32,000 nucleotides of DNA from Phycisphaera mikurensis NBRC 102666 (GCF_000284115.1 NC_017080.1:1590001-1622000), one strand, 5' to 3'; shown: positions 223-29,016, counted from the first letter of the stretch. Translations and numbers: made by a program. The notes: a model not told the origin generated them from the sequence alone.

Positions 223-1257
223 GTGGACGGCTCGTCGTCAACGCGAGAGGTGAGGGCGGCGCTCGCGGCGTCGCTGACCGCAACCGGGCTCGCCGGGAGC
301 GGCACGCTCTTGATCGCGTGCTCGGGCGGCGGCGACTCGGTGGCTCTGCTGCGTGCGCTGCTGGATCTCCGCGGCAAGCGCGGCTTCGCGTACGCCCTCC
401 GCGTGGCCCACGTCGACCACGGCTTGCGCTCGGAGAGCGGGCGGGACGCCGCGTGGGTCGCCGCTCTCGCCGCGTCTTTGGGCGTGGCCGCGGCCACGCT
501 GCGGATCGACTGCGACGGCTTGGGGAACCCGGAGGCGCGGGCACGCGTGCGTCGCTACGCGGCGCTCGCCGACGCGGCGGCGGCCGCGGGCGCCGCCGCC
601 GTGCTGACCGCCCACTCCGCGGACGACCAGCTCGAGACGCTGCTGATGCGGCTGATCCGCGGCGCCGGGACCCGCGGCATGTCGGGGATCCCGGCCGAGC
701 GCCCGCTCGCTCCCGGCGTCCGCCTCGTCCGCCCGCTGCTGCGCGTCCCCCGCGACACGCTCCGGGCCTTCCTCGCCGAGCGGGAGCAGCCCTTCCTGCA
801 CGACCCGACCAACGACGATCCCTCCCGCCTCCGCGCCCGCCTCCGGCGCGACGTGCTGCCCGTGCTCGCCGACGTGCGGCCCGGCGTCGCCGGGAACGCC
901 GTCGCGCTCGCGGAGGACCTGCGCGACGCCGACCACGCCCTCGCCTGGGCCGCACGCGGCGTCGTCTTCCCGCTCTCCCGCGGGGATGCGCGGGCGCTGC
1001 CGGCGGCCGTGCTGCACGCCGCGCTTCGTCGCGAGCTCGACGCCGCCGGCGTGCCCGCCGATCGGCGGAACCGGGACCGACGCCGCGCGATGGTCCGCGC
1101 CTGCCGCGACGGGAGCGGGGCGGTGCGGGTCTTCGAGCTGGCGCCGCTGCAGCTGCGCGTCGAGCGGGACCGCGTGCGTCTGATCCGCGGCGACGGTCGC
1201 GGGGCCCAGGAGCAGCCGCCGCGGCCCCGTCGCCGCTCCCGCCCCCGCTCCGCGTGA
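223..1257 (+). CDS. tilS: tRNA(Ile)-lysidine synthetase
   Basis: 344-aa ORF with a GTG start. It has the PP-loop motif [14 protein letters not shown] near the N-terminus and the TilS-type block [28 protein letters not shown]. Confidence 0.85.
617..662. repeat. BP46 bipartite palindrome, degenerate copy inside tilS
   Basis: CCGCGGACGA (617-626), a 26-nt spacer, then TGATCCGCGG (653-662). The arms match the consensus 8/10 and 8/10. The 7-bp core CCGCGGA/TCCGCGG is perfectly complementary and the spacing is identical to the perfect copies. Confidence 0.4.
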
Positions 1258-6249: not shown

Positions 6250-6990
6250 CGGGCAGCCCGACGCTCGCTCCAGGTCCTTCGCGACAAGCAGACAGAGCGG
6301 CGTCGCCGCTCAGCCTGGCCGCGCTAGCTGCGTGGCGACGCCACGCTGTCCGAGCCGCGGTCCGGCTCCTTCGCGCACAAGGCAGACAGAGCGGCGTCGC
6401 CGCTCAGCTCTCGGAGCCAGCCTGGCCGCGTTAGCTGCCTGGCGACGCCACGCTGTCCGCGTCGCCGATCCAGCTTCTTCGCGCACAAGCAGACAGAGCG
6501 GCGTCGCCGCTCAGCTCTCCCCGCCAGCCTGGCCGCGCTAGCTGCGTGGCGACGCCACGCTGTCCGAGCCCCGATCCAGCTCCCTCGCGCACAAGCAGAC
6601 AGAGCGGCATCGCCGCTCAGCTCTCGCCGCCAGCTTGGCCGCGGTCGCTGCGTGGCGACGCCACGCTGTCCGGGCCCCGATCCAGCTCCCTCGCGCACAA
6701 GCAGACAGAGCGGCATCGCCGCTCAGCTCTCGGAGCCAGCTTGGCCGCGCTAGCTGCGTGGCGACGCCACGCTGTCCGGGCCCCGATCCAGCTCCCTCGC
6801 GCACAAGCAGACAGAGCGGCATCGCCGCTCAGCTCTCCCCGCCACCCTGGCCGCGCTAGCTGCGTGGCGACGCCACGCTGTCCGAGCCGCCGATCCAGCT
6901 CCTTCGCGCACAAGCCAGACAGAGCGGCGTCGCCGCTCCGCTCTCGATGCCACCCTGGCCGCGATAGCTGCGTCGCGACTCGCTCGCGCC
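6250..6990. repeat. Non-coding tandem array, 106-107-bp unit x ~7, two palindromes per unit
   Basis: The landmark CTAGCTGCGTGGCGACGCCACGCTGTCC recurs at 6324, 6431, 6538, 6644, 6750 and 6856 (periods 107, 107, 106, 106, 106). A degenerate 7th start is at 6964 and a half-unit lies upstream (~6262-6323). Each unit holds GCGTGGCG-A-CGCCACGC (centres 6338, 6445, 6552, 6658, 6764, 6870) and GAGCGGC-NTC-GCCGCTC (centres 6303, 6397, 6504, 6610, 6716, 6822, 6930). The period is not divisible by 3. The ORF-track peptides here are frame-shifted Arg/Ala/Pro-rich versions of each other. Confidence 0.9.
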
Positions 6991-9685: not shown

Positions 9686-9750
9686 CCGCGGACCCCGCGG
9701 ACCCCGCGGACCGTCGGCGTTTCGACACGGTTTCGATCACGGTCCGCGGG
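9686..9750. repeat. BP46 bipartite palindrome, perfect intergenic copy with triplicated left arm (possible recQ terminator hairpin)
   Basis: CCGCGGACC occurs three times in tandem (9686-9712). CCGCGGACCG (9704-9713), a 26-nt spacer, then CGGTCCGCGG (9740-9749). Complementarity extends to 12 bp (9703-9714 / 9739-9750). The copy lies between the recQ stop (9681) and the apgM start (9861). Confidence 0.85.
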
Positions 9751-13482: not shown

Positions 13483-14647
13483 GCGCGGCTTCCTCGAGCA
13501 CCTCGGCGTGGCGGAGGTCGGCCGCGGCGGCGGAGAAGGCGGCCGCACGCCGGACCGCCGCGGCGGCGAGGGCCGCCCGCGCGGCCGGATCGGCAAGCAG
13601 GGCCGCGAGGGACGCCGCGAGGGCGGCGGGGTCTTCCGGTGCGACGATCCGGCCGGCCGGCGGCTCCCCCAGCGCGTCGGGCATCCCGCCGACGCGGGTC
13701 ACCACCGGCGGGAGGCCGGCGGCCATCGCCTCGAGCAGCGCCAGCGGGAGGCCTTCGCTGCGGGAGGGCATCACCGCCACCGAGGACGCGTGCAGCAGCG
13801 CGGCGGTGGCGGCGGGATCGAGGCGGCCCGCGAAGCGGACGGCGTCGCCGAGGCCGAGCTCCGCCGCGAGCGACCGCAGGGCCGGCGCCTCGGGGCCGTC
13901 GCCCACCAGCGTGAGGCGGGCGGCGGGCACGGACGCCCGGAGGCGGGCGAGCGCCCGAAGCAGCACGTCGTGGCCCTTGACCCGCTCCAGACGCCCGACG
14001 CAGGCCAGGGCGGCCGGCGCCGCCGCCGCGTCGTCGGGCCTCCGCCAGAAGGCCAAGTCGACGCCGTTGGGGATCACCTCGACCGGCGCCCGGGGAAACG
14101 CCGGGCGGTGTCCGCCCGCCCGCAGCGTCTCCGCCCGCTCGGCGAGCCCGGCGGAGACGGCGATGATCCGGTCGGCCCGGCGGAGCAGCGCCCGGAGGCG
14201 GGCCGCGTCGGCGGGCAGCGGCTGCAGCAGGTCGCTGCCGTGGCAGGTCAGCACCAGCGCCGCGCGGCGCCGGGAGGAGGCGAACCAGCGGGTGCCGCCC
14301 CGCGGGAAGTGCACGTCGACCACCCGGGGCCGGAACCCGCGCAGCGTCGAGCGGAGGCGGCGGAGCGGGTCGGCCGCGTGAAGCAGGCCGCGGGGCGTGG
14401 GCCGCGGGCGGCCCAGCGGGAGCCGCCGATCCTCGAGGCGCGGGAGCCGCAGCGTGAGAACCTCGCCGGGCGAGGGCCAGCGGCGCGGTCGGGGCTCCGG
14501 GGCGGCCGGGTCGTCGATCGGCCAGGCGCGGACCACCGCGTGCCCGCGAGCGGCGAGGAAGGCGGCCGTCCGGCGGTAGACCGCCTGCACGCCCCCGGCT
14601 TCGGTGGGGACGACGGGCGTGTAGAGCAGGACGCGGAGCGGGGTCAC
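13451..14647 (-). CDS. family 4 (GT-B) glycosyltransferase
   Basis: 398 aa from the GTG at 14647 (VTPLRVLLYTPVVPTEAGGVQ...). The C-terminal half carries the GT4 signature FAGRLD...VAVMPSRSEGLPLALLEAMAAGLPPVVTRVGGMPD. The start overlaps the upstream stop as GTGA. Confidence 0.85.
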   Translation of the reverse strand: MTPLRVLLYTPVVPTEAGGVQAVYRRTAAFLAARGHAVVRAWPIDDPAAPEPRPRRWPSPGEVLTLRLPRLEDRRLPLGRPRPTPRGLLHAADPLRRLRSTLRGFRPRVVDVHFPRGGTRWFASSRRRAALVLTCHGSDLLQPLPADAARLRALLRRADRIIAVSAGLAERAETLRAGGHRPAFPRAPVEVIPNGVDLAFWRRPDDAAAAPAALACVGRLERVKGHDVLLRALARLRASVPAARLTLVGDGPEAPALRSLAAELGLGDAVRFAGRLDPAATAALLHASSVAVMPSRSEGLPLALLEAMAAGLPPVVTRVGGMPDALGEPPAGRIVAPEDPAALAASLAALLADPAARAALAAAAVRRAAAFSAAAADLRHAEVLEEAALSRPGRSPAR

Positions 14648-16638
14648 TCCGCCGGCCTTCCCGGCGCCGCCGGCGCCGCGTTGCGGCTTCGGCCCCGGGC
14701 CCAGCGCAGCAGCCGCAGCGCGGCGAGCGAGTGCGGCCGCAGCGCCAGCGCCCGGCGGGCGAGCGCGGCGGCGGCGGCGGGATCGGGCGGGTGCTCGCTC
14801 CCGGGCGCGCGGGCGAGGTGGCGGCGGGCGGTCTCGAGCAGGTAGGCGGCGGCCACGGCGCGGCCGGCCCGCCGCATCGCGGGGCCGTGGATCGCGTACA
14901 GCTGCTCCCGGGCGCGGAGGTTCCGCTCCAGCGCGCGGGAGCGGCGGGGGGTGGCGGCGGCGTCGTCCCGGTAGCGGGCGGTCACCCGCGGGATGACCGC
15001 GATGCGGTGCTGCTTCGCCAGGCGGATGCAGAACTCCCAGTCCTCGATCGCTTCGAGGGTTTCGTCGAAGAAGCCCGCGGTCGCGACCGCCTCGCGCCGC
15101 ATCAGCCCGTTGACGGTGAAGCCGAAGGCGCCGTTCTCCAGGAACAAGGCCGGGAGCGCGGCCGCGCCGGCTGCGGGCCGGTGCGTCGCCGTCCGCTTCC
15201 CATCGAGGCGCTGGATGCCCGAGCACAGCGCCGCCGTCGCCGCGGGCTCGGCGTCGAGCGCCCGCAGCCGGGGGCGGAGCGTGCCCGGCAGCCACGCGTC
15301 GTCGGAGTCCAGGAAGGCGACGACGCGGCCGCGGGCCTCGCGGAGGCCGCGGTTGCGGGCCGCGGCGACGCCGCCGTTCTCCCGCTGGCGGAGCAGGCGG
15401 AGCCGCGGGTCGTCGACGGCCTCCACGGCCTCGGGCGTGCCGTCGGTGGAGGCGTCGTCGACGACGAGCAGCTCCAGCGTGACGTCCGTCTGCGCGAGCA
15501 CGCTGCGGATCGCCCGCACGACGTCGGCGGGGCGGTTGAAGACGGGGATGATCGCCGAGACCTCGGGGAGGCGGAGCTCTTCGGGCGTCACCGCGGGGGC
15601 GGGGGCCGGGGTGGGGGCGGGGGCCGCGCCGCGGACCGCGGCGGGAATCGGCCTCGGCGGCCGGCAGTCCGCGGCGGAGGGCGGCGGACCGTTGGGATCG
15701 GCCGCCGGCGCCGGCGGCGACGCCGGGAAGAGCCGCCGCTTCAGGCGGGCCGCGGCGGGCGCGCGGAAGCGGCGGACGAGGCGGGCGACCCGGTCGGCGC
15801 TCGCCGCGTCGCCCGCCGCCGCGGCATCGAGCCGCACGTTGTGGAGAGCCGTCAGCAGCGCCGCCCGGTGGATGCCGAGCCGGCCGCTCTCCTCGAGCCG
15901 GTGGCCGATCTTCTCGAAGACATGCAGCCGGCTCGCCAGACCCTCCGGCGTCGCGCGCCGCCCGCTGAGCGTGGTCGCCCCGCCGGCGGGCCGGCGGTAG
16001 TAGGCGAGCCCGCGCGTGGAGAACGCGACGCCGGCGTCGCCGGTGCGCAGGAGGTGCCGCATCGCGAGGTCGCCGTCGTCCATCACGCTGGCTTGGGGGT
16101 CCCAGCCGCCGGTGCGCAGGCACGCCTCCCGGTCCCAGAGCATCGCGCACGTCGGGTGGTACCAGCCGCGCAGCCAGGCCGAGAGCAGCGGCTCGCCGGC
16201 GTGGCGGGGCCGGCAGGAGGCCAGCGCGGTCCGCCACGCCCCGTCTCCGCGGTCGGGGTCGGTCTCCAGCCGGCGCCAGCGGCACAGCGCGAGGCCGGCG
16301 TCGGGCGCGGCGTCGAGCGCCTCGTTCGAGCCCGCGAGCGCCTCGGGGCCGAGCACGTCGTCCGCGTCGAGGAAGAGCAGCCGGTCGCTCCGGGCCGCCA
16401 GCAGGCCAAGGTTCCGCGCACGGCCGGCGTTGCCGGCGTCGGAGGCGAGGAAGCGAACGCGGAAGGGCGCTCCCGCCAGGGCCGCGGCGGCGGCCGCGAA
16501 GCCGCCGTCGGTGGAGCGGTCGTCGACGACGATCACCTCCCACGGCGGGGCGGTCTGAGCCCGCAGCGAGAGCAGCGTCTCGCCGATCGTGTCGGCGCCC
16601 TGGTGCAGCGGGATGACGGCGGACACGCGGGCCTTCAC
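14644..16638 (-). CDS. fused bifunctional glycosyltransferase (two GT2 domains joined by a Pro/Ala-rich linker)
   Basis: 664 aa from the GTG at 16638. Domain 1 is VSAVIPLHQG...VIVVDDRSTDGG...LFLDADDVL. The linker is PASPPAPAADPNGPPPSAADCRPPRPIPAAVRGAAPAPTPAPAPA. Domain 2 is VSAIIPVFNR...LLVVDDASTDGT...AFLDSDDAW. There are GTGA overlaps at both ends. Confidence 0.8.
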   Translation of the reverse strand: MKARVSAVIPLHQGADTIGETLLSLRAQTAPPWEVIVVDDRSTDGGFAAAAAALAGAPFRVRFLASDAGNAGRARNLGLLAARSDRLLFLDADDVLGPEALAGSNEALDAAPDAGLALCRWRRLETDPDRGDGAWRTALASCRPRHAGEPLLSAWLRGWYHPTCAMLWDREACLRTGGWDPQASVMDDGDLAMRHLLRTGDAGVAFSTRGLAYYRRPAGGATTLSGRRATPEGLASRLHVFEKIGHRLEESGRLGIHRAALLTALHNVRLDAAAAGDAASADRVARLVRRFRAPAAARLKRRLFPASPPAPAADPNGPPPSAADCRPPRPIPAAVRGAAPAPTPAPAPAVTPEELRLPEVSAIIPVFNRPADVVRAIRSVLAQTDVTLELLVVDDASTDGTPEAVEAVDDPRLRLLRQRENGGVAAARNRGLREARGRVVAFLDSDDAWLPGTLRPRLRALDAEPAATAALCSGIQRLDGKRTATHRPAAGAAALPALFLENGAFGFTVNGLMRREAVATAGFFDETLEAIEDWEFCIRLAKQHRIAVIPRVTARYRDDAAATPRRSRALERNLRAREQLYAIHGPAMRRAGRAVAAAYLLETARRHLARAPGSEHPPDPAAAAALARRALALRPHSLAALRLLRWARGRSRNAAPAAPGRPAE
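15629..15674. repeat. BP46 bipartite palindrome, near-perfect copy inside the GT2-GT2 linker
   Basis: CCGCGGACCG (15629-15638), a 26-nt spacer, then CAGTCCGCGG (15665-15674). 19 of 20 arm positions match the consensus. The flanking G...C at 15628/15675 also pairs. Confidence 0.75.
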
Positions 16639-17807
16639 GCGGGGGCCTCCTCCAGCGTGGCGAGCGCGGCGGCGAGCGCCCCGGGCTCGACCGCGAGGTC
16701 CTGCTCCACCGGCGGCCGATCGCCCACCGGGCGGGCCGGCACGAAGCGGTGCCGGTGGCCCAGCGCCGCCCCGAGCGCGTAAAAGTTGGGGTTCGGGAAG
16801 CCGGGGTCGGCGAGCTCGACGACCTCGAGGCCACGCGGGGCGAAGAGCATGTTCGTGAGCCCGGCTCCGTGCGGGCCGGCGAGCACGCCGGTCTCCCGCA
16901 TCAGCGCCGCCTGCGCCGGGAGGTCCAATTCCTCGAAGACGACCCGCTCGAAGCCGTGGTCGTCGAGCACCCGGTGCAGCGCCGCGACGCCGAGCAGGCG
17001 GCGCCGGGTCGCCCGCTCGCGGCTCACCCACACGCGTCGCGTGGGCGCCGGCGCGTCGGCCAGCGCAAGCGCCCGGGGGATGAGGCCGACCAGCTCGGGG
17101 GCGAAGCGGTCGGTCGACAGCGCCGTCAGGCGGCCGACGCGCAGCGGCCGGTCCTCGTCGAAGCGGAGGAAGGCCGACTCCGGGAGCCCGAGCAGCCGCA
17201 GGCTCGCCTCGTGGGCCGGCGGCATCCGCGCCGGCAGCAGCACGTTCTTCAACCGGCCGAGCCCGCGGAGCAGCAGCAGCTTGGGCAGGTGCGCCGCGAG
17301 CCAGTGGCTGTGGTTGTGCCAGACCCGCTCCAGGAACCAGACCGCCTCGGGCACCTCGCGCGGCGCGGGGAGGCCGTTGCCCATCAGCAGCCGCTCGTGC
17401 CGCGGACGGAAGCGGACTTCCCGCATCCGAAGCTTCGATCCGCGGCCGGCCACGATCGCGGGGAAGAAGTCGTCGTTCTGCTCGGGGTCCCGGTACCAGA
17501 GGATCTCGGCGGGGCCGAGCTCGGCGACCTGCGTCGCCTCCGCGGCGCGGGCGGGCACGTCGGCCATCGCGTAGCCCCACCAGCCGGCGTCCGCCGGCAG
17601 CTCCGAGGCGGAGCCGACCCCGCGGGGCAGCGGGTTCGCGTGCACCCGGGGCGGGTGCACCTCCTCGAGGCGGGCGCCGGGGAGGGCCGCCGCGGCCTCC
17701 GCGAGCGAGCGGTCGCGGAGCCCGCGCCACCCGACGGCGCGGGCGGGGAGCCCGGCGCCCACGGCGCATCGCAGCCCGGCCCGGATCGCGCGGCGCAGCG
17801 GGCTCAC
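16635..17807 (-). CDS. GT61 / DUF563-like glycosyltransferase
   Basis: 390 aa from the GTG at 17807 (VSPLRRAIRAG...). Blocks HNHSHWLAAHLPKLLLL and FEELDLPAQAALMRETGVLAGPHGAGLTNMLFAP are typical of the DUF563/GT61 capsular-polysaccharide family. There are GTGA overlaps with both neighbours. Confidence 0.7.
   Translation of the reverse strand: MSPLRRAIRAGLRCAVGAGLPARAVGWRGLRDRSLAEAAAALPGARLEEVHPPRVHANPLPRGVGSASELPADAGWWGYAMADVPARAAEATQVAELGPAEILWYRDPEQNDDFFPAIVAGRGSKLRMREVRFRPRHERLLMGNGLPAPREVPEAVWFLERVWHNHSHWLAAHLPKLLLLRGLGRLKNVLLPARMPPAHEASLRLLGLPESAFLRFDEDRPLRVGRLTALSTDRFAPELVGLIPRALALADAPAPTRRVWVSRERATRRRLLGVAALHRVLDDHGFERVVFEELDLPAQAALMRETGVLAGPHGAGLTNMLFAPRGLEVVELADPGFPNPNFYALGAALGHRHRFVPARPVGDRPPVEQDLAVEPGALAAALATLEEAPA
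17400..17445. repeat. BP46 bipartite palindrome, degenerate copy inside the GT61-like gene
   Basis: CCGCGGACGG (17400-17409), a 26-nt spacer, then CGATCCGCGG (17436-17445). The arms match 9/10 and 9/10. The outer 7 bp are perfectly complementary. It is read in a different codon frame from the other coding copies. Confidence 0.55.
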
Positions 17808-19114
17808 GGGCCCGGCCTCAGCTCGTCCGTCCGCTGCGCGATGGCCGCGTGAACCGGCTCCCAGTCGCCGGCGTGCCGCGCACGCAGGCCGTCGAAGGCC
17901 GCGCGGATCCGCCCGCGGACCGCCGCGTCCGCGAGGTCCGCGGCGACCCGGTCCGCGGCTTCCGCCGCGGCGAAGGCGTCGGGCCGCAGGATCCGCTCCC
18001 CGAAGCCGGGCCCCAGCGAGGCGAGGAAGGCGTCGCACTTGGGGTCGTAGCTCACCAGGTGGCAGGGCACCCCCTGCGCCAGCGCGAAGATCACCGGGTG
18101 CAGCCGCAGGCTCACGACCGCGTCGAAGAGCCCGTAGAGGTGCTTGAGCGCCGCGGGATCCTCCACCGGCTCGTCGAGGACGACCGAGCCGGGCACCGCC
18201 ATCCGCGCCCGCACGCCCCGGGCGGTCGCCACGTCGTCGGGCTTGCCGGCGCTGGCTTCCCGCTGCCGGTCGGTGCCCAGGAAGAAGACGTCCGCGTGGT
18301 CACGCTGGACGCGGTCGAGCGTCGCGGCGAGCTCCGCGAAGACCTTCTCCCGGCGGGCGAGCGCGTCGGGGTAGTTCGCCTGGTAGTCGCGAACGCAGAC
18401 GCCGACCCGCGGCCGCTGGCCCGCCGCGATGCGGGCGGCGAGCGGCGCGGCGGCGGGGTCTTCACGCGGCCGGAGGAAGACCGCGGCGTCGGTCGACTCC
18501 ACCACCTGCGCGCGGACGCCCAGGCGCCGCAGCGCCGGCCCCGAGGCGTCGTCGCGCACGAGGATCCCGGTGTGCAGGTCCAGCGTGGAGCGCAGCAGCG
18601 GTCGGAGCAGGACCCCCCGCGGGCCCGCGAGGTCGAAGGGACCGCAGCCGACGCCGAGCTGGAAGGCCGGCACGCGGTAAAAGCGGGCGGCGGAGAGGAG
18701 CAGCCGGTTCTGCAGCACCATCCGCGGCTTCAACCAGCGGTCGTTCCAGGTCGGCCCGCCCTGGAAGACGAGCCCCGCGGCCCCCTCGAAGACGCCGCGG
18801 ACGCGGGCAAACGCCTCCGCGTCCAGCACCGCGCGCCCGCCGTCGCGGGCGAGCGCGCGGGCGAGCCGCAGCGTGCGCGGGTAGGTCTTTCTGCCGCCCA
18901 CCGCGGGCACCGCCCAGACGAGCCGCTCGTGCACCGCGTCGCCGGGGCCCGCCAGCTCCGGCAGCGCCCGGAAGACGCCGGGCCGATCGACGTAGGCGTG
19001 CACCGGCAGGTCGCTCCGCCGCCGCAGGCCCTGCAGGATGGCCAGCCCGATGCCGGTGTCGCCGACGGTCGGCGAGATCCCCGAGAACAGGATGCGCGGC
19101 GTCGGCGTCTTCAT
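17804..19114 (-). CDS. polysaccharide pyruvyl transferase (CsaB/WcaK family)
   Basis: 436 aa from the ATG at 19114 (MKTPTPRILFSGISPTVGDTGIGLAILQGL). The C-terminal block LYGLFDAVVSLRLHPVIFALAQGVPCHLVSYDPKCDAF is typical of PS_pyruv_trans proteins. The start shares one base with the wzt stop (TGATG). Confidence 0.72.
   Translation of the reverse strand: MKTPTPRILFSGISPTVGDTGIGLAILQGLRRRSDLPVHAYVDRPGVFRALPELAGPGDAVHERLVWAVPAVGGRKTYPRTLRLARALARDGGRAVLDAEAFARVRGVFEGAAGLVFQGGPTWNDRWLKPRMVLQNRLLLSAARFYRVPAFQLGVGCGPFDLAGPRGVLLRPLLRSTLDLHTGILVRDDASGPALRRLGVRAQVVESTDAAVFLRPREDPAAAPLAARIAAGQRPRVGVCVRDYQANYPDALARREKVFAELAATLDRVQRDHADVFFLGTDRQREASAGKPDDVATARGVRARMAVPGSVVLDEPVEDPAALKHLYGLFDAVVSLRLHPVIFALAQGVPCHLVSYDPKCDAFLASLGPGFGERILRPDAFAAAEAADRVAADLADAAVRGRIRAAFDGLRARHAGDWEPVHAAIAQRTDELRPGP
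17913..17958. repeat. BP46 bipartite palindrome, perfect copy inside the pyruvyl-transferase gene
   Basis: CCGCGGACCG (17913-17922), a 26-nt spacer, then CGGTCCGCGG (17949-17958). An extra right-arm-like AGGTCCGCGG sits in the spacer at 17934-17943. The copy encodes AADRVAADLADAAVRG. Confidence 0.85.
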
Positions 19115-20403
19115 CACGCCGGACCGTTGGGCACCGCCCACGCGTGCCGCGGGGCGATCGGGCACTCCAGCTGCGGCGTGGCGAGGGCCCGGCCGGCCAT
19201 CAGCCCCTGCTCGATGGTCAATTCCGCGGCCTGCTGGATCGCGTCGGCGAGGCCGTCGCGGTCGTGCAGCGTCGCGTTGAGGTGGTAGCCGCCGGGGGTC
19301 AGCGGCAGCTCCGGCACCTCGCAGAGGAACGCCGGCTCGTCCGTCGTCGTGTCGGTCGCCGCGGCGGCTTTGCTGGCGAAGCGGCACACCGGCCGGTTGT
19401 AGCCGTCGTACACCGCGAGGATGCACGAGAGCCCGCGGGTCACGCCGGAGAGGCCGACGCGGATCGTCGCGGGCTCGCCGTAGAGCAGGTAGCCCGGGGC
19501 GTCGGCGTTGTCACCTGACCAGGCCCGCAGCGAGGTGACCCGTGCCCGCTGGTGCCCCTCCCGGTCGGTCCGATCCGCGAGGTCGGCGGCCTCGACCGCG
19601 TTCTCCGCGAGGTACATCCGGACGGCCTCCGCGGGCGTGCCGCCGCCGATCAGCCGCCCCCGCTGCAGCACCACGGCCCGGTCGCACAGGCTCTGGATGC
19701 TGCCCATGTTGTGGCTGACGAAGAGGATCGTCCGCCCCTCGTCCGCGAAGGAGCGCATCTTGGCGACGCACTTCTTCTGGAACGCGGCGTCGCCCACGGC
19801 GAGAACCTCGTCGACGACGAGGATCTCCGGCTCGAGGTTGGAGGCCACCGCGAAAGCGAGCCGCACGTACATGCCGCTGGAGTAGCGCTTCACCGGGGTG
19901 TCGATGAAGCGGCCGATCTCCGAGAACGCCACGATCTCGTCGAACTTGTCGGCCACCTCGCGCCGCGACATCCCCAGCACCGCCCCGTTGAGGAAGACGT
20001 TCTCGCGGCCGGTGAGCTCGGGGTGGAAGCCGGTGCCCACCTCCAGCAGGCTGCCCATCCGGCCGTGGATGAAGGCTTCGCCCGCGGTGGGGTCGGTGAT
20101 GCGGGAGAGGATCTTCAGCAGCGTGGACTTGCCGGCCCCGTTGTGGCCGATCAGGCCGAGCACCTCGCCCCGCTGGACGTCGAAGCCGACGTCTCTGAGG
20201 GCCCAGAGGTCGCGCTCAGAGGATTGCGCCTCGTCCCCGCCGCCCGCGTCGCCGGTGGCGGCCGGGGTGCGGCCGCGGACGCGGTTACGCAGGCGGGCCG
20301 CGGCGGCGGCGACGGTGTCGCGCAGGTCGCCCCTGCCCTGCGGGCCCGTGCCCAGGCGGTAGTGCTTGGAGAGCCCCCTCACTTCGATCGCGGCTTGGGT
20401 CAT
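19114..20403 (-). CDS. wzt: polysaccharide/O-antigen ABC exporter ATP-binding protein with C-terminal extension (Wzt-type)
   Basis: 429 aa from the ATG at 20403, preceded by GAGGA 5 nt upstream. Walker A GHNGAGKSTLLK, signature YSSGMYVRLAFA, Walker B ILVVDEVLAVGD. About 170 further residues (RVTSLRAWSGD...YHLNATLHD...) sit where the Wzt glycan-binding beta-sandwich domain would be. Confidence 0.88.
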   Translation of the reverse strand: MTQAAIEVRGLSKHYRLGTGPQGRGDLRDTVAAAAARLRNRVRGRTPAATGDAGGGDEAQSSERDLWALRDVGFDVQRGEVLGLIGHNGAGKSTLLKILSRITDPTAGEAFIHGRMGSLLEVGTGFHPELTGRENVFLNGAVLGMSRREVADKFDEIVAFSEIGRFIDTPVKRYSSGMYVRLAFAVASNLEPEILVVDEVLAVGDAAFQKKCVAKMRSFADEGRTILFVSHNMGSIQSLCDRAVVLQRGRLIGGGTPAEAVRMYLAENAVEAADLADRTDREGHQRARVTSLRAWSGDNADAPGYLLYGEPATIRVGLSGVTRGLSCILAVYDGYNRPVCRFASKAAAATDTTTDEPAFLCEVPELPLTPGGYHLNATLHDRDGLADAIQQAAELTIEQGLMAGRALATPQLECPIAPRHAWAVPNGPA

Positions 20404-21322: not shown

Positions 21323-21368
21323 CCGCGGACCGTGGGGCGTCGATGCTCCTGCGCCTCGCGGTCCGCGG
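21323..21368. repeat. BP46 bipartite palindrome, perfect intergenic copy between nnrD and wzm
   Basis: CCGCGGACCG (21323-21332), a 26-nt spacer, then CGGTCCGCGG (21359-21368). The spacer ends can extend the stem by about 8 pairs if G-U wobbles are allowed on the plus-strand RNA. Confidence 0.85.
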
Positions 21369-26173: not shown

Positions 26174-26221
26174 GCCGCGGACCGCGGCCCGATCCCGCCG
26201 AAACGCCCGACGGTCCGCGGC
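26174..26221. repeat. BP46 bipartite palindrome, perfect intergenic copy downstream of the HU gene
   Basis: GCCGCGGACCG (26174-26184), a 26-nt spacer, then CGGTCCGCGGC (26211-26221). The arms are 11 bp. Read on the minus strand, the spacer begins TCGGGCGTTTCG, like the copy at 9704 (TCGGCGTTTCG). Confidence 0.85.
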
Positions 26222-26353: not shown

Positions 26354-26923
26354 TTAGTTCACGTACTCCTTGAGGTTCTTGAGTGCCCGGACCTTCACCG
26401 CCTTCGAAGCGGGCTTGGCCTTGATCATGATGTCCTCGCCCGTGAAGGGGTTGCGGCCGGGCCGCGCCTTGGTGGCGGGCTTCTTCACGACGGTCAGCTT
26501 CGCGAGGCTGAGGAGGTTGAACTCGCCGTGCTTCTTGAGCGAGGCGGCCATCTCGGCCTCAAGCTGGTCGAGCACGTCGACGACCTGCTTGCGGGAGAGG
26601 TCGCACTTGTCGGCGAGCGTGCGGTACAGCTCCGCCTTCGTCGGCGGCTTCGTCCCGGCGCTGCCCTTGCGGGGGCCCGACGAGGCGGTCTTGCTGGCCG
26701 CGGCCTTCTTCGCGGTCTTCTTGGCCGGCGACTTCTTCGCCGGGGCTTTCTTTGCGGGCGCCTTCTTCGCCGCGCTCTTCTTCGCCGGAGCCTTCTTCGC
26801 CGCGGCCTTCTTGGCGGGGGCCTTCTTGGCAGGCGCCTTCTTCGCGGGCGCCTTCTTGGCCGGGCTCTTCTTGGCGGGCGCCTTCTTGGCGGGGCTCTTC
26901 TTGGCGGGGGTCTTCTTGGCCAT
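26354..26923 (-). CDS. HU/IHF-family DNA-binding protein with N-terminal Lys/Ala/Pro-rich (histone H1-like) tail
   Basis: 189 aa. Residues 1-~95 are [19 protein letters not shown]... (about 14 AKKxP/A pentapeptides). The C-terminal ~93 aa is an HU fold ([12 protein letters not shown]...[18 protein letters not shown]...[11 protein letters not shown]). Confidence 0.9.
26705..26920. repeat. 15-bp tandem periodicity inside the HU-tail coding region
   Basis: GCCTTCTTGGCGGGC-type units repeat about 14 times on the plus strand. They encode the AKKxP pentapeptide repeats. Confidence 0.85.
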
Positions 26924-27297: not shown

Positions 27298-29016
27298 ATG
27301 CCCCACGAGATCTCCCGCACCGCTTACGCCGAGATGTTCGGCCCCACCACCGGCGATCTCGTCCGCCTCGGGGACACGCGGCTGCTCGCCCGCGTCGAGG
27401 CCGACTTCACCGTCTACGGCGACGAGTGCAAGTTCGGCGGTGGGAAAGTCCTGCGCGAGGGCATGGGGCAACGCGCCGGCGGCGATCCGGCGGACGCGCT
27501 GGATTACGTCATCACCAACGCGCTGGTCATCGACTGGACGGGCATCTACAAGGCCGACGTCGGGCTCAAAGGAGGCCGCATCGCCGGGATCGGCAAGGCC
27601 GGCAACCCCGACGTGATGGCCGGCGTCGACGATCGCCTCGTCATGGGCGTCACCACCGAGGTCATCGCCGGCGAGGGCCACGTGCTCACCGCCGGCGGCC
27701 TCGACACGCACGTCCACTTCATCTGCCCGCAGATCGTCGACGAAGCGATCGCCTCGGGCGTGACGACGCTCATCGGCGGCGGCACCGGCCCGGCCACCGG
27801 CACCTGCGCGACGACCTGCACGCCGGGCGCCGCCCACGTGGAGATGATGCTCCGGGCGACCGACGGCCTGCCGATCAACTTCGGCTTCCTCGGCAAGGGG
27901 AACACCAGCGACCCCGAGGGCCTCGCCGAGGTCGCCGCCGCCGGCGCCCTGGGCTTCAAGCTCCACGAAGACTGGGGCACCACGCCCGCCGCGATCGACT
28001 GCTGCCTGGGCGTCGCCGAAGACCTCGACGTGCAGGTGTGCATCCACACCGACACGCTCAACGAGAGCGGCTTCGTGGAGGCGAGCGTCGCCGCTTTCAA
28101 GGGCCGCACGATCCACACCTACCACACCGAGGGCGCCGGCGGCGGCCACGCCCCGGACATCATCAAAGTGTGCGGCGAGCCCAACGTGATCCCCTCGTCG
28201 ACCAACCCGACGCGGCCGTACACGGTGAACACGATCGACGAGCACCTGGACATGCTCATGGTCTGCCACCACCTCGATGCGAACCTCCCCGAGGACGTCG
28301 CCTTCGCCGAGTCACGCATCCGCGGCGAAACCATCATGGCCGAGGACGTGCTCCACGACCTGGGCGCCTTCTCGATCATGGGCTCCGACGCCCAGGCGAT
28401 GGGCCGCGTGGGCGAGGTGGTGACCCGCACCTGGCAGACCGCCTCGAAGATGCGCGACCAGCGCGGCGTGCTCGGCGGAGACCGCGAGGGCCGCGGCGAC
28501 AACGAGCGGATCAAGCGGTACGTCGCGAAGTACACCATCAACCCGGCGATCGCCCACGGCATCGGCCACGTCGTCGGCAGCGTGGAGGTGGGAAAGCTCG
28601 CCGACCTGGTCCTGTGGAAGCCCGCCTTCTTCGGCGTGAAGCCCGAGCTGGTGATCAAGGGCGGCCACATCGCCAGCGCCCAGATGGGCGACCCCAACGC
28701 CAGCATCCCCACGCCGCAGCCGGTGCACACGCGCCCGATGTTCGCCGCGATGGGCAAAGCGGTCGCCGGCACCTCGCTGGCCTTCGTCAGCCAGTCGGCG
28801 GTCGACGCCGGCGCCGCGGACCGCTGCGGTTTGGCGAAGAAAACCGAGGCGGTCCGCGGCTGCCGCAGCATCGGCAAGGCGGACATGAAGCTCAACGACG
28901 CGCTCCCGGTGATCGAGGTCGACCCCGAGACCTACCGGGTCGTCGCCGACGGCGTCGAGCTGCGGTGCGAGCCCGCGGAGACGCTGCCGCTGGCCCAGAA
29001 GTACTTCCTCTTCTGA
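27298..29016 (+). CDS. ureC: urease alpha (catalytic) subunit
   Basis: 572 aa. [27 protein letters not shown]..., Ni ligands and catalytic residues in [20 protein letters not shown] (the carbamylated Lys), [33 protein letters not shown] and [10 protein letters not shown], and a C-terminal [10 protein letters not shown]. Confidence 0.95.
28813..28860. repeat. BP46 bipartite palindrome, perfect copy inside ureC
   Basis: GCCGCGGACCG (28813-28823), a 26-nt spacer, then CGGTCCGCGGC (28850-28860). It encodes [16 protein letters not shown] within the conserved C-terminal region of UreC. Confidence 0.85.

Follow-up and report, generated by a model that had tools for sequence, protein, structure and literature searches.

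Copies in the window and in related genomes

The window, by which we mean the whole 32,000-nucleotide stretch of Phycisphaera mikurensis NBRC 102666 analyzed here (NC_017080.1:1590001-1622000; G+C 68–80%), contains recQ, apgM, several glycosyltransferase genes, nnrD, an HU gene and ureC, among others. Dispersed between and within these genes are five perfect copies of a bipartite motif of the form CCGCGGACCG-N26-CGGTCCGCGG (Table 1; copies are named by their first position). With up to three mismatches allowed, there are 8 matches in the window vs. 0.15 expected from dinucleotide shuffles (the 8 include position 26182, a shadow that overlaps copy 26175). This excess, together with the enrichment of the one- and two-mismatch classes reported below, bears out the five perfect copies of the original prediction as well as its near copies at 15629 and 17400. 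Each of the five perfect right arms follows a perfect left arm by exactly 26 nt, as had been claimed, and the sixth perfect left arm (copy 15629) is partnered by a right arm with one mismatch. The gene contexts that the original prediction gave for the intergenic copies (recQ/apgM, nnrD/ABC-2 permease and HU/hypothetical) were also right. Extension of the window by 17.7 kb of flanking DNA (9.8 kb on the left and 7.9 kb on the right, from JACHEL010000003.1, GCA_014207395.1, with 100% identity over the window) added four further perfect copies, at window coordinates -8676, -6116, 33094 and 37280, for a P. mikurensis total of 9 perfect copies in 49.7 kb. With these and more in related genomes, the pairs are found well beyond the stretch in which they were first noticed.

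Table 1. Motif copies and other features of the window and its right flank (window coordinates)
Position	Feature	Arms	Location	Remarks
617..662	Match	4 mismatches	tilS-like gene (PF01171, ATP_bind_3)	Encoded segment presumably a conserved TilS motif
6303-6979	106-bp tandem repeat		Between GH63 and PTS-EIIA genes, filling ~850 bp without coding signal	6.3 copies, 91% matches, TRF score 1078; hairpins GCGTGGCG-a-CGCCACGC and GAGCGGCG-t-CGCCGCTC in each unit
9686..9712	Left arm tandem triplication	CCGCGGACC x3		Runs into copy 9704
9704..9749	Copy	Perfect	Intergenic; recQ stop 23 nt before, apgM start 112 nt after	Spacer tcggcgtttcgacacggtttcgatca with two phased T-tracts
15629..15674	Near copy	1 mismatch; right arm CAGTCCGCGG	Double-GT2 glycosyltransferase gene 14644-16638, minus strand	Pro/Ala-rich inter-domain linker; AADC...AVRG
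17400..17445	Near copy	2 non-compensatory mismatches	GT61 gene 16635-17807, minus strand	
17913..17958	Copy	Perfect	Polysaccharide pyruvyl transferase gene 17804-19117, minus strand	C-terminal tail past the Pfam domain; AADR...AVRG
17935-17943	Extra GGTCCGCGG		Spacer of copy 17913	Creates a nested right arm at shorter spacing
21323..21368	Copy	Perfect	Intergenic, co-directional minus-strand genes; nnrD (Carb_kinase) stop 14 nt before, ABC-2 permease start 36 nt after	
26175..26220	Copy	Perfect	Intergenic; 134 nt past HU gene stop, upstream of hypothetical gene	Spacer on minus strand is the family consensus TCGGGCGTTTCGG...
26354-26923	HU gene, minus strand			189 aa; Lys/Ala/Pro-rich histone-H1-like HC2 N-terminal half plus HU fold (Bac_DNA_binding)
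27451-27743	RF02514 (5_ureB_sRNA), minus strand		Antisense in ureC	96.7 bits; only Rfam match in the window, off the copies
28814..28859	Copy	Perfect	ureC 27298-29016, plus strand	Collinear with all ureases
30800-33199	Isocitrate dehydrogenase (IDH) gene, minus strand			~60-aa Pro/Arg-rich N-terminal extension before MPLIVYTLTDEAP
37270-37289	Left arm tandem duplication	CCGCGGACCG x2	Adjoins a copy (L030 18152-18171)	

Tandem repeats of the left arm adjoin two of the copies; one of them is the triplication already noted in the original prediction, which we confirm, and both could reflect either slippage or additional half-sites. The RF02514 match most likely reflects conserved urease coding sequence and not an sRNA gene at this place. 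No Rfam or tRNA match was found in the 106-bp tandem repeat.

Class counts were taken over 106 kb from five genomes that had been picked for their homologous proteins, irrespective of the motif, with the mean over every other spacing from 12 to 60 serving as the control. At N26 they gave 19 perfect pairs vs. 0.04 expected, 4 vs. 0.06 with one mismatch, 4 vs. 0.38 with two (~10-fold), 1 vs. 1.4 with three and 5 vs. 5.9 with four, so that the enrichment in this sample is confined to the classes with 0–2 mismatches. Since the 4-mismatch class stands at its expected level, the match at 617..662, which had been listed as a near copy, is probably not a member of the family and is best treated as background. 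A histogram of arm spacings (99 kb), a check proposed along with the original prediction, has a sharp spike of 24 pairs at N26 and one pair at N28; the remaining left-to-right-arm spacings have scattered counts, none above 2, and the 11 counts at -7 (overlapping arms) and the 4–5 counts at 23 in the same-arm histograms are geometric artefacts. The sub-palindromes CCGCGG and CGGWCCG are by themselves not over-represented (O/E 0.9–1.25), which, in combination with the spike at N26, identifies the pair as the unit. Indeed, the arms occur almost exclusively as inverted N26 pairs, unpaired arms being essentially absent. The density is ~1 per 5.6 kb, which extrapolates to ~700 copies per 3.9-Mb genome.

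The same arms at the same spacing are present in four uncultured relatives, namely L084, L085 and L087 (ApgM identity 82–87%) and L088 (UreC identity 87%). No copy was found in L086 (68% ApgM identity) or in L089 (a UreC relative of 60% G+C), and a search of L086 for any other repeated inverted pair, as a possible "dialect," was likewise negative. In metagenome contigs, 53 stretches with the motif were found, ~33 of them from the ENA marine series ORXU/ORXM/ORXT, these ORX contigs being selected by the motif itself and in some cases chimeric. Two of the contigs (L065 and L054, ENA ORXU01) show G+C jumps between ~40–50% and ~70%, with the motif in the high-G+C end, and are probably chimeric low-coverage assemblies. 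An exact-pattern scan of 185,579 species-representative genomes (596 Gb) yielded 26 matches, one each in unrelated genomes, which corresponds to the chance level; the source genome is not among the matches, so this collection lacks or masks P. mikurensis. The same pattern had no match in viral contigs. Overall, the family is genome-wide and restricted to roughly one genus, and a chance product of codon or amino-acid bias is excluded by the shuffles, by the excess of perfect pairs and by the occurrence of singletons only across the 596 Gb.

Three of the 9 perfect P. mikurensis copies lie within coding sequence (CDS) and six outside well-supported coding sequence; intergenic DNA makes up only about a tenth of the sequence, and the intergenic excess is therefore strong. 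Copy 33094 lies in the N-terminal extension with which the IDH gene is called; this extension is probably not translated and the start of the gene probably mis-called, which would place the copy in the 5' region rather than in the CDS. The intergenic copies are found between co-directional genes (9704, 21323, 26175, 33094), divergent genes (-6116, 37280, L085 7216, L087 2197) and convergent genes (L088 5080, L084 19437), while the copies in CDS occupy linkers, tails and variable loops. The motif is thus independent of transcription-unit layout. A terminator scan made no terminator-like call at any copy, and no T tail was seen; Rfam (at gathering score) and tRNA scans returned nothing at the copies. 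An intrinsic terminator is rejected on the grounds of the 26-nt loop, where such terminators have 3–8 nt, the lack of a terminator call and the presence of copies in CDS and between divergent genes. Literature searches on the 10-mers and on Phycisphaera repeats retrieved no description of the element, only primers and unrelated papers; these results and the Rfam negatives agree with the original view that the element is undescribed.

Origin and persistence of the copies

Copies within conserved genes provide a view of how the motif came into being. Alignment of the ureC copy with structurally characterised ureases from plants and bacteria needs no gap, and in the copy within folK (encoding HPPK) the PRT of PRTVDLDLL, a stretch that matches PRTLDLDIM of E. 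coli HPPK residue for residue, is encoded by the left arm. Coding copies mostly read xCC GCG GAC CGx ... xCG GTC CGC GGx, i.e., (A/S/P)-A-D-R ... x-V-R-G, with both arms in one reading frame because they are 36 nt (12 codons) apart. Among 120 UreC homologues, AADR..AVRG occurs in P. mikurensis and its 87% relative only, and many of the others resemble VG[DE]RYGLSKRVE[PA]VR[GN]. The remodelling of ureC includes replacement of a nearly invariant Tyr by Cys (TAC to TGC) as well as the rare codons TTG and AAA; the spacer codons TGC, TTG and AAA create a self-complementary CGGTTT...AAACCG. In both the ureC and folK copies the spacer still encodes the ancestral residues, and the remodelling is limited to the arms and two A/T tracts. 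The gap-free alignment and the ancestral spacer residues imply that the motif was written by substitution and not inserted. On the evidence of these alignments, the copies are shown to have arisen in situ via point changes in genes and spacers. The motif has been strong enough to alter conserved residues and the codon choice of urease.

This origin contradicts the link to RAYT/IS200-type proteins that had been suggested with the motif, as the copies carry no insertion signature. No RAYT (IS200-like) gene was seen among the called genes of the 106 kb, and no transposase or RAYT gene was found between the doubled copies in L047, L052 and L067.

Comparison of orthologous positions addresses the persistence of the copies once formed. 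Between P. mikurensis and L088, the ureC copy has 0 changes in 20 arm positions vs. 29% third-position divergence, a score equalled by only 7.5% of same-phase windows. P. mikurensis, L084 and L087 all have a copy ~110 nt upstream of apgM, in which the arms do not vary while spacers, flanks and the remaining intergenic DNA are diverged or scrambled, and the gene upstream varies (recQ, a gene for IGPS or infC in divergent orientation). In L087 the spacer of this copy (2197-2244) is 28 nt long; the contig has ~4x coverage, to go by its name, and a frameshifted glycerate kinase gene, and the N28 spacer may be an indel or an assembly error. The glycerate kinase copy is found in L084, L085 and L087 (two perfect, one with 2 mismatches), and another, at the 5' end of a CTP_transf-like gene, is found in L084 and L085, with a left arm cut short by the contig end at the corresponding place in L087. 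At the aligned loci, the arms and their spacing are accordingly shown to be conserved, with the arms outlasting the synonymous and intergenic sites around them.

A candidate duplex recognition site and its alternatives

The original prediction described the spacers as free. Symmetrised position frequencies (52 copies for base identity, 54 for A/T content) revealed positional preferences instead: A is never found at position 0, A occurs in 54% at position -1 and G in 57% at -3; each arm is followed by Y-S-G (Y in 98% at position 11, S in 92% at 12, G in 75% at 13), and A/T content reaches 44–70% at positions 17–20 and the mirror positions 27–30 vs. a background of ~20–25%. The preferences at -4 to 0, 11–13 and 17–20 are symmetric, and the spacers are otherwise unrelated between loci. 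Of 13 spacer pairs, 12 show no covariation between the partner columns (z from -1.1 to 0.8), the exception being pair 11/36 (z 2.6). Like-with-like pairings of the A/T tracts (T/T plus A/A, 11) are about as frequent as T/A (10), and mismatches in near copies are non-compensatory. A polar GTTTC sub-motif as a mark of RNA orientation is rejected as well: in a manual tabulation, T- and A-tracts fell on the sense strand with no rule, and the T- or A-rich side had no fixed orientation to transcription. Spacers fold slightly better than shuffled ones (mean z -0.68, t -3.4), and among the copies there are a few long, nearly perfect palindromes; the spacers as an extension of the stem are nevertheless rejected, given the lack of covariation and a folding excess that is only weak. 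As the arms never vary, covariation neither supports nor excludes pairing of arm with arm, whereas symmetric preferences without covariation favor a duplex protein site over a stem-loop.

We therefore consider the 46-bp unit to be, with a probability of roughly 0.55, a dyad-symmetric site, made in situ and kept perfect, at which a dedicated protein, either a dimer or a tetramer, recognises duplex DNA. That a protein reads the motif, that it does so in duplex DNA and that the spacer is bent are all steps which we infer from the patterns described above. The putative reader would probably be a dimer or a dimer of dimers, and the site, including its weaker flanks, would span ~56 bp. Each half-site would take the form 5'-(C G R A B) CCGCGGACCG Y S G N3 W-tract, two of which would meet centrally with the arms 36 bp apart; the two A/T tracts, ~10 bp from each other in an otherwise 74% G+C genome, would render the spacer bendable. 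Copies are formed by point substitutions in sequence already close to the motif, coding or not, and not by transposition; they then stay perfect longer than neighbouring synonymous and intergenic sites, with dynamics known from DNA uptake sequences and HIP1. Chromosome organisation, global regulation and the marking of own DNA for uptake or recombination are candidate roles for the reader. Several features count against such a site, among them the high stability of a 10-bp G+C stem, the slight folding excess of the spacers and the few long palindromes. The centre-to-centre distance of 36 bp corresponds to ~3.4 helical turns, which puts the arms on nearly opposite faces of the helix and is awkward for a simple dimer without wrapping. 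Moreover, ~700 (extrapolated) near-perfect 20-nt sites are far more, in both stringency and number, than is known for regulator or partition sites.

Of the three readings offered originally, the dyad protein site and the selected oligomer pair are strengthened by the symmetry without covariation and by the in situ origin, respectively, while the stem-loop has become less favored. The selected pair can be framed as an uptake-signal-like drive, in which a surface or periplasmic receptor of a competence machine would prefer DNA with the motif and recombination of the imported DNA would spread mutations that improve proto-sites; this seems to us somewhat unlikely. As a special case of protein recognition, it would let the motif build up although it had no role within the cell. 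The origin by point mutation in coding and non-coding DNA, the non-coding excess, the use of unconstrained protein segments, the lack of strand or transcription polarity and the restriction to a genus all agree with such a drive, as does the perfect class outnumbering the classes with one or two mismatches. However, known signals of this kind are single asymmetric words and here the pairs are obligate, at a density ~5 times below that of DUS/USS; to our knowledge, natural competence has not been reported for Planctomycetota. The stem-loop reading, in RNA or single-stranded DNA, would make the motif a stabiliser of mRNA 3' ends, an unconventional terminator, a processing site or a HUH/RAYT-type hairpin of the REP/REPIN kind. 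With arms forming a 10-bp G+C stem, the predicted hairpins are indeed highly stable (-24 to -36 kcal/mol), a stop codon lies 3–37 nt ahead of about half of the intergenic copies, and the slight folding excess and the covariation at pair 11/36, weak as it is, point the same way. We still regard this reading as unlikely, since it is the sequence of the arms and not a structure that is conserved: near-copy changes are not compensated, the other spacer pairs do not covary and the A/T tracts pair like with like as often as T with A. In addition, a T tail, a terminator-like call, an Rfam match and a consistent orientation to transcription are all lacking, the loop length is strictly fixed although a hairpin does not need this, copies lie between divergent genes, where transcripts do not end, and the apgM copy survives when its upstream gene changes or is divergent.

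Biased repair might also account for an in situ origin and a mismatch spectrum heavy in perfect copies, if a methyltransferase with Vsr-like short-patch repair, or another nicking and repair system, perfected and protected near-sites. The over-representation of CCWGG in E. coli offers a precedent for Vsr, the reported recognition of HIP1 by two methylases also speaks for such a mechanism, and the CCGCGG and CGGWCCG within the arms are the SacII and RsrII sites; but neither word is over-represented alone, and we know of no repair system that reads two 10-mers 26 bp apart, which leaves this mechanism quite improbable. Scarcely credible, finally, are a small mobile element, be it a MITE or a REP that spreads by inserting itself, and a chance outcome of codon and amino-acid bias. 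The arms do resemble 10-bp terminal inverted repeats, and the frame xCC GCG GAC CGx consists of favored high-GC codons. Yet the ureC and folK copies show no indel relative to their homologues and keep ancestral residues in the spacer, spacers are unrelated, and the doubled copies have no transposase nearby; for the copies examined, the mobile-element reading is refuted by the lack of an insertion signature.

Extending the preferred protein-site reading, we tentatively put forward, as a possibility of low confidence, that the motif is a hitherto unseen kind of genome-wide signature of own DNA, an obligately bipartite dyad word of 46–56 bp, put into genes and spacers by substitution, with a dedicated dimeric reader that would mark DNA for uptake or recombination or organise the chromosome through ~700 anchors. 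Lineage-specific words spread by substitution are rare, and USS/DUS, HIP1, Chi and KOPS each exposed a DNA-handling machinery; the present motif would be the first such word with two obligate arms and a fixed spacer. We know of no earlier word of this kind in Planctomycetota, whose cell biology is unusual and for which genetic tools are scarce. Were it an uptake signal, it would have no forerunner outside Proteobacteria and none that is bipartite, and, if it serves in uptake or self-recognition, Phycisphaera could become genetically tractable. In practical terms, a 46–56-bp duplex offers a precise bait for the putative DNA-binding protein, and the phyletic pattern (presence in P. mikurensis and four relatives, absence at ~68% ApgM identity) offers a handle for finding the gene of the reader.

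Comparison with known repeats and recognition words

Among dispersed repeats, the motif shares with REP/BIME/REPIN elements the form of G+C-rich inverted repeats, a frequent location just 3' of genes and a preferred spacing. REP/BIME elements have been proposed to bind gyrase and proteins that bend DNA. Unlike them, the Phycisphaera copies bear no insertion signature or tag, their 26-nt spacers are unrelated, and a third of the perfect copies are collinear in CDS. REPs are described as imperfect palindromes of 20–40 nt with an 8–9-bp stem, a 4–5-nt loop and a GTAG or CGTC tag, and, to judge by shorter homologues, those within genes bring in extra residues (PMC3733652). Assignment to REP/REPIN is rejected, since copies are collinear with homologues, the arms measure 10 bp and GTAG is absent; CGTC occurs internally only, where a spacer starts with TC. 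A MITE is rejected on account of unrelated spacers and of symmetric flank preferences in place of direct target-site duplications, and a CRISPR array on account of inverted arms and single units per locus dispersed over at least 50 kb.

Sites of the dyad operator or partition type offer a closer match in shape. Two-fold symmetric half-sites without covariation, which characterise such sites, are what we find; like the sites of parS/ParB, NBS/Noc, matS/MatP and ram/RacA, the motif is a near-perfect duplex palindrome that is tolerated in genes and conserved in a lineage, the reader being in our case predicted. The parS, NBS, matS and ram sites are contiguous palindromes of 13–16 bp, with ~10–100 copies usually in one chromosomal domain. 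The Phycisphaera site differs from them in being bipartite, with a 26-bp gap, and in its ~700 copies (extrapolated).

In its dynamics, the motif comes closer to over-represented words. HIP1 (GCGATCGC, in cyanobacteria) is a single 8-bp palindrome found every few hundred bp, which spreads by substitution and not by insertion. The motif is likewise palindromic, hyper-abundant, present in genes and spacers and conserved beyond neutral expectation, but it is bipartite, 46–56 bp long and much rarer, and a short palindrome over-represented on its own, as in HIP1, was not found here (the sub-palindromes stay near background). Phased A/T tracts beside a strict core are known from the Haemophilus USS. 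According to a 2026 preprint, two methylases, DmtA and DmtC, recognise HIP1 (10.64898/2026.06.24.733823). DUS/USS are single, non-palindromic 9–12-mers, ~10% of which occur as inverted pairs; they originate by point mutation, are over-represented in non-coding DNA as well as in unconstrained stretches of protein, lack polarity, are lineage-specific and are attributed to molecular drive (PMC1939737). Over-representation of a word that arises by point mutation in coding and non-coding sequence is a property which the motif shares, as it does lineage specificity, occurrence on both strands, hundreds of copies per genome (extrapolated here), conservation at orthologous positions and a strict core. 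The form of a single asymmetric 9–12-mer it does not share, its arms being nearly always in N26 pairs; unlike DUS/USS, which occur ~1 per kb with pairs in the minority, the Phycisphaera unit is an obligate inverted pair. Overall, the motif combines dynamics like those of USS/DUS and HIP1 with a shape like that of REP/BIME pairs or partition-type palindromes, and its obligate two-arm, fixed-spacer design sets it apart from every known over-represented word.
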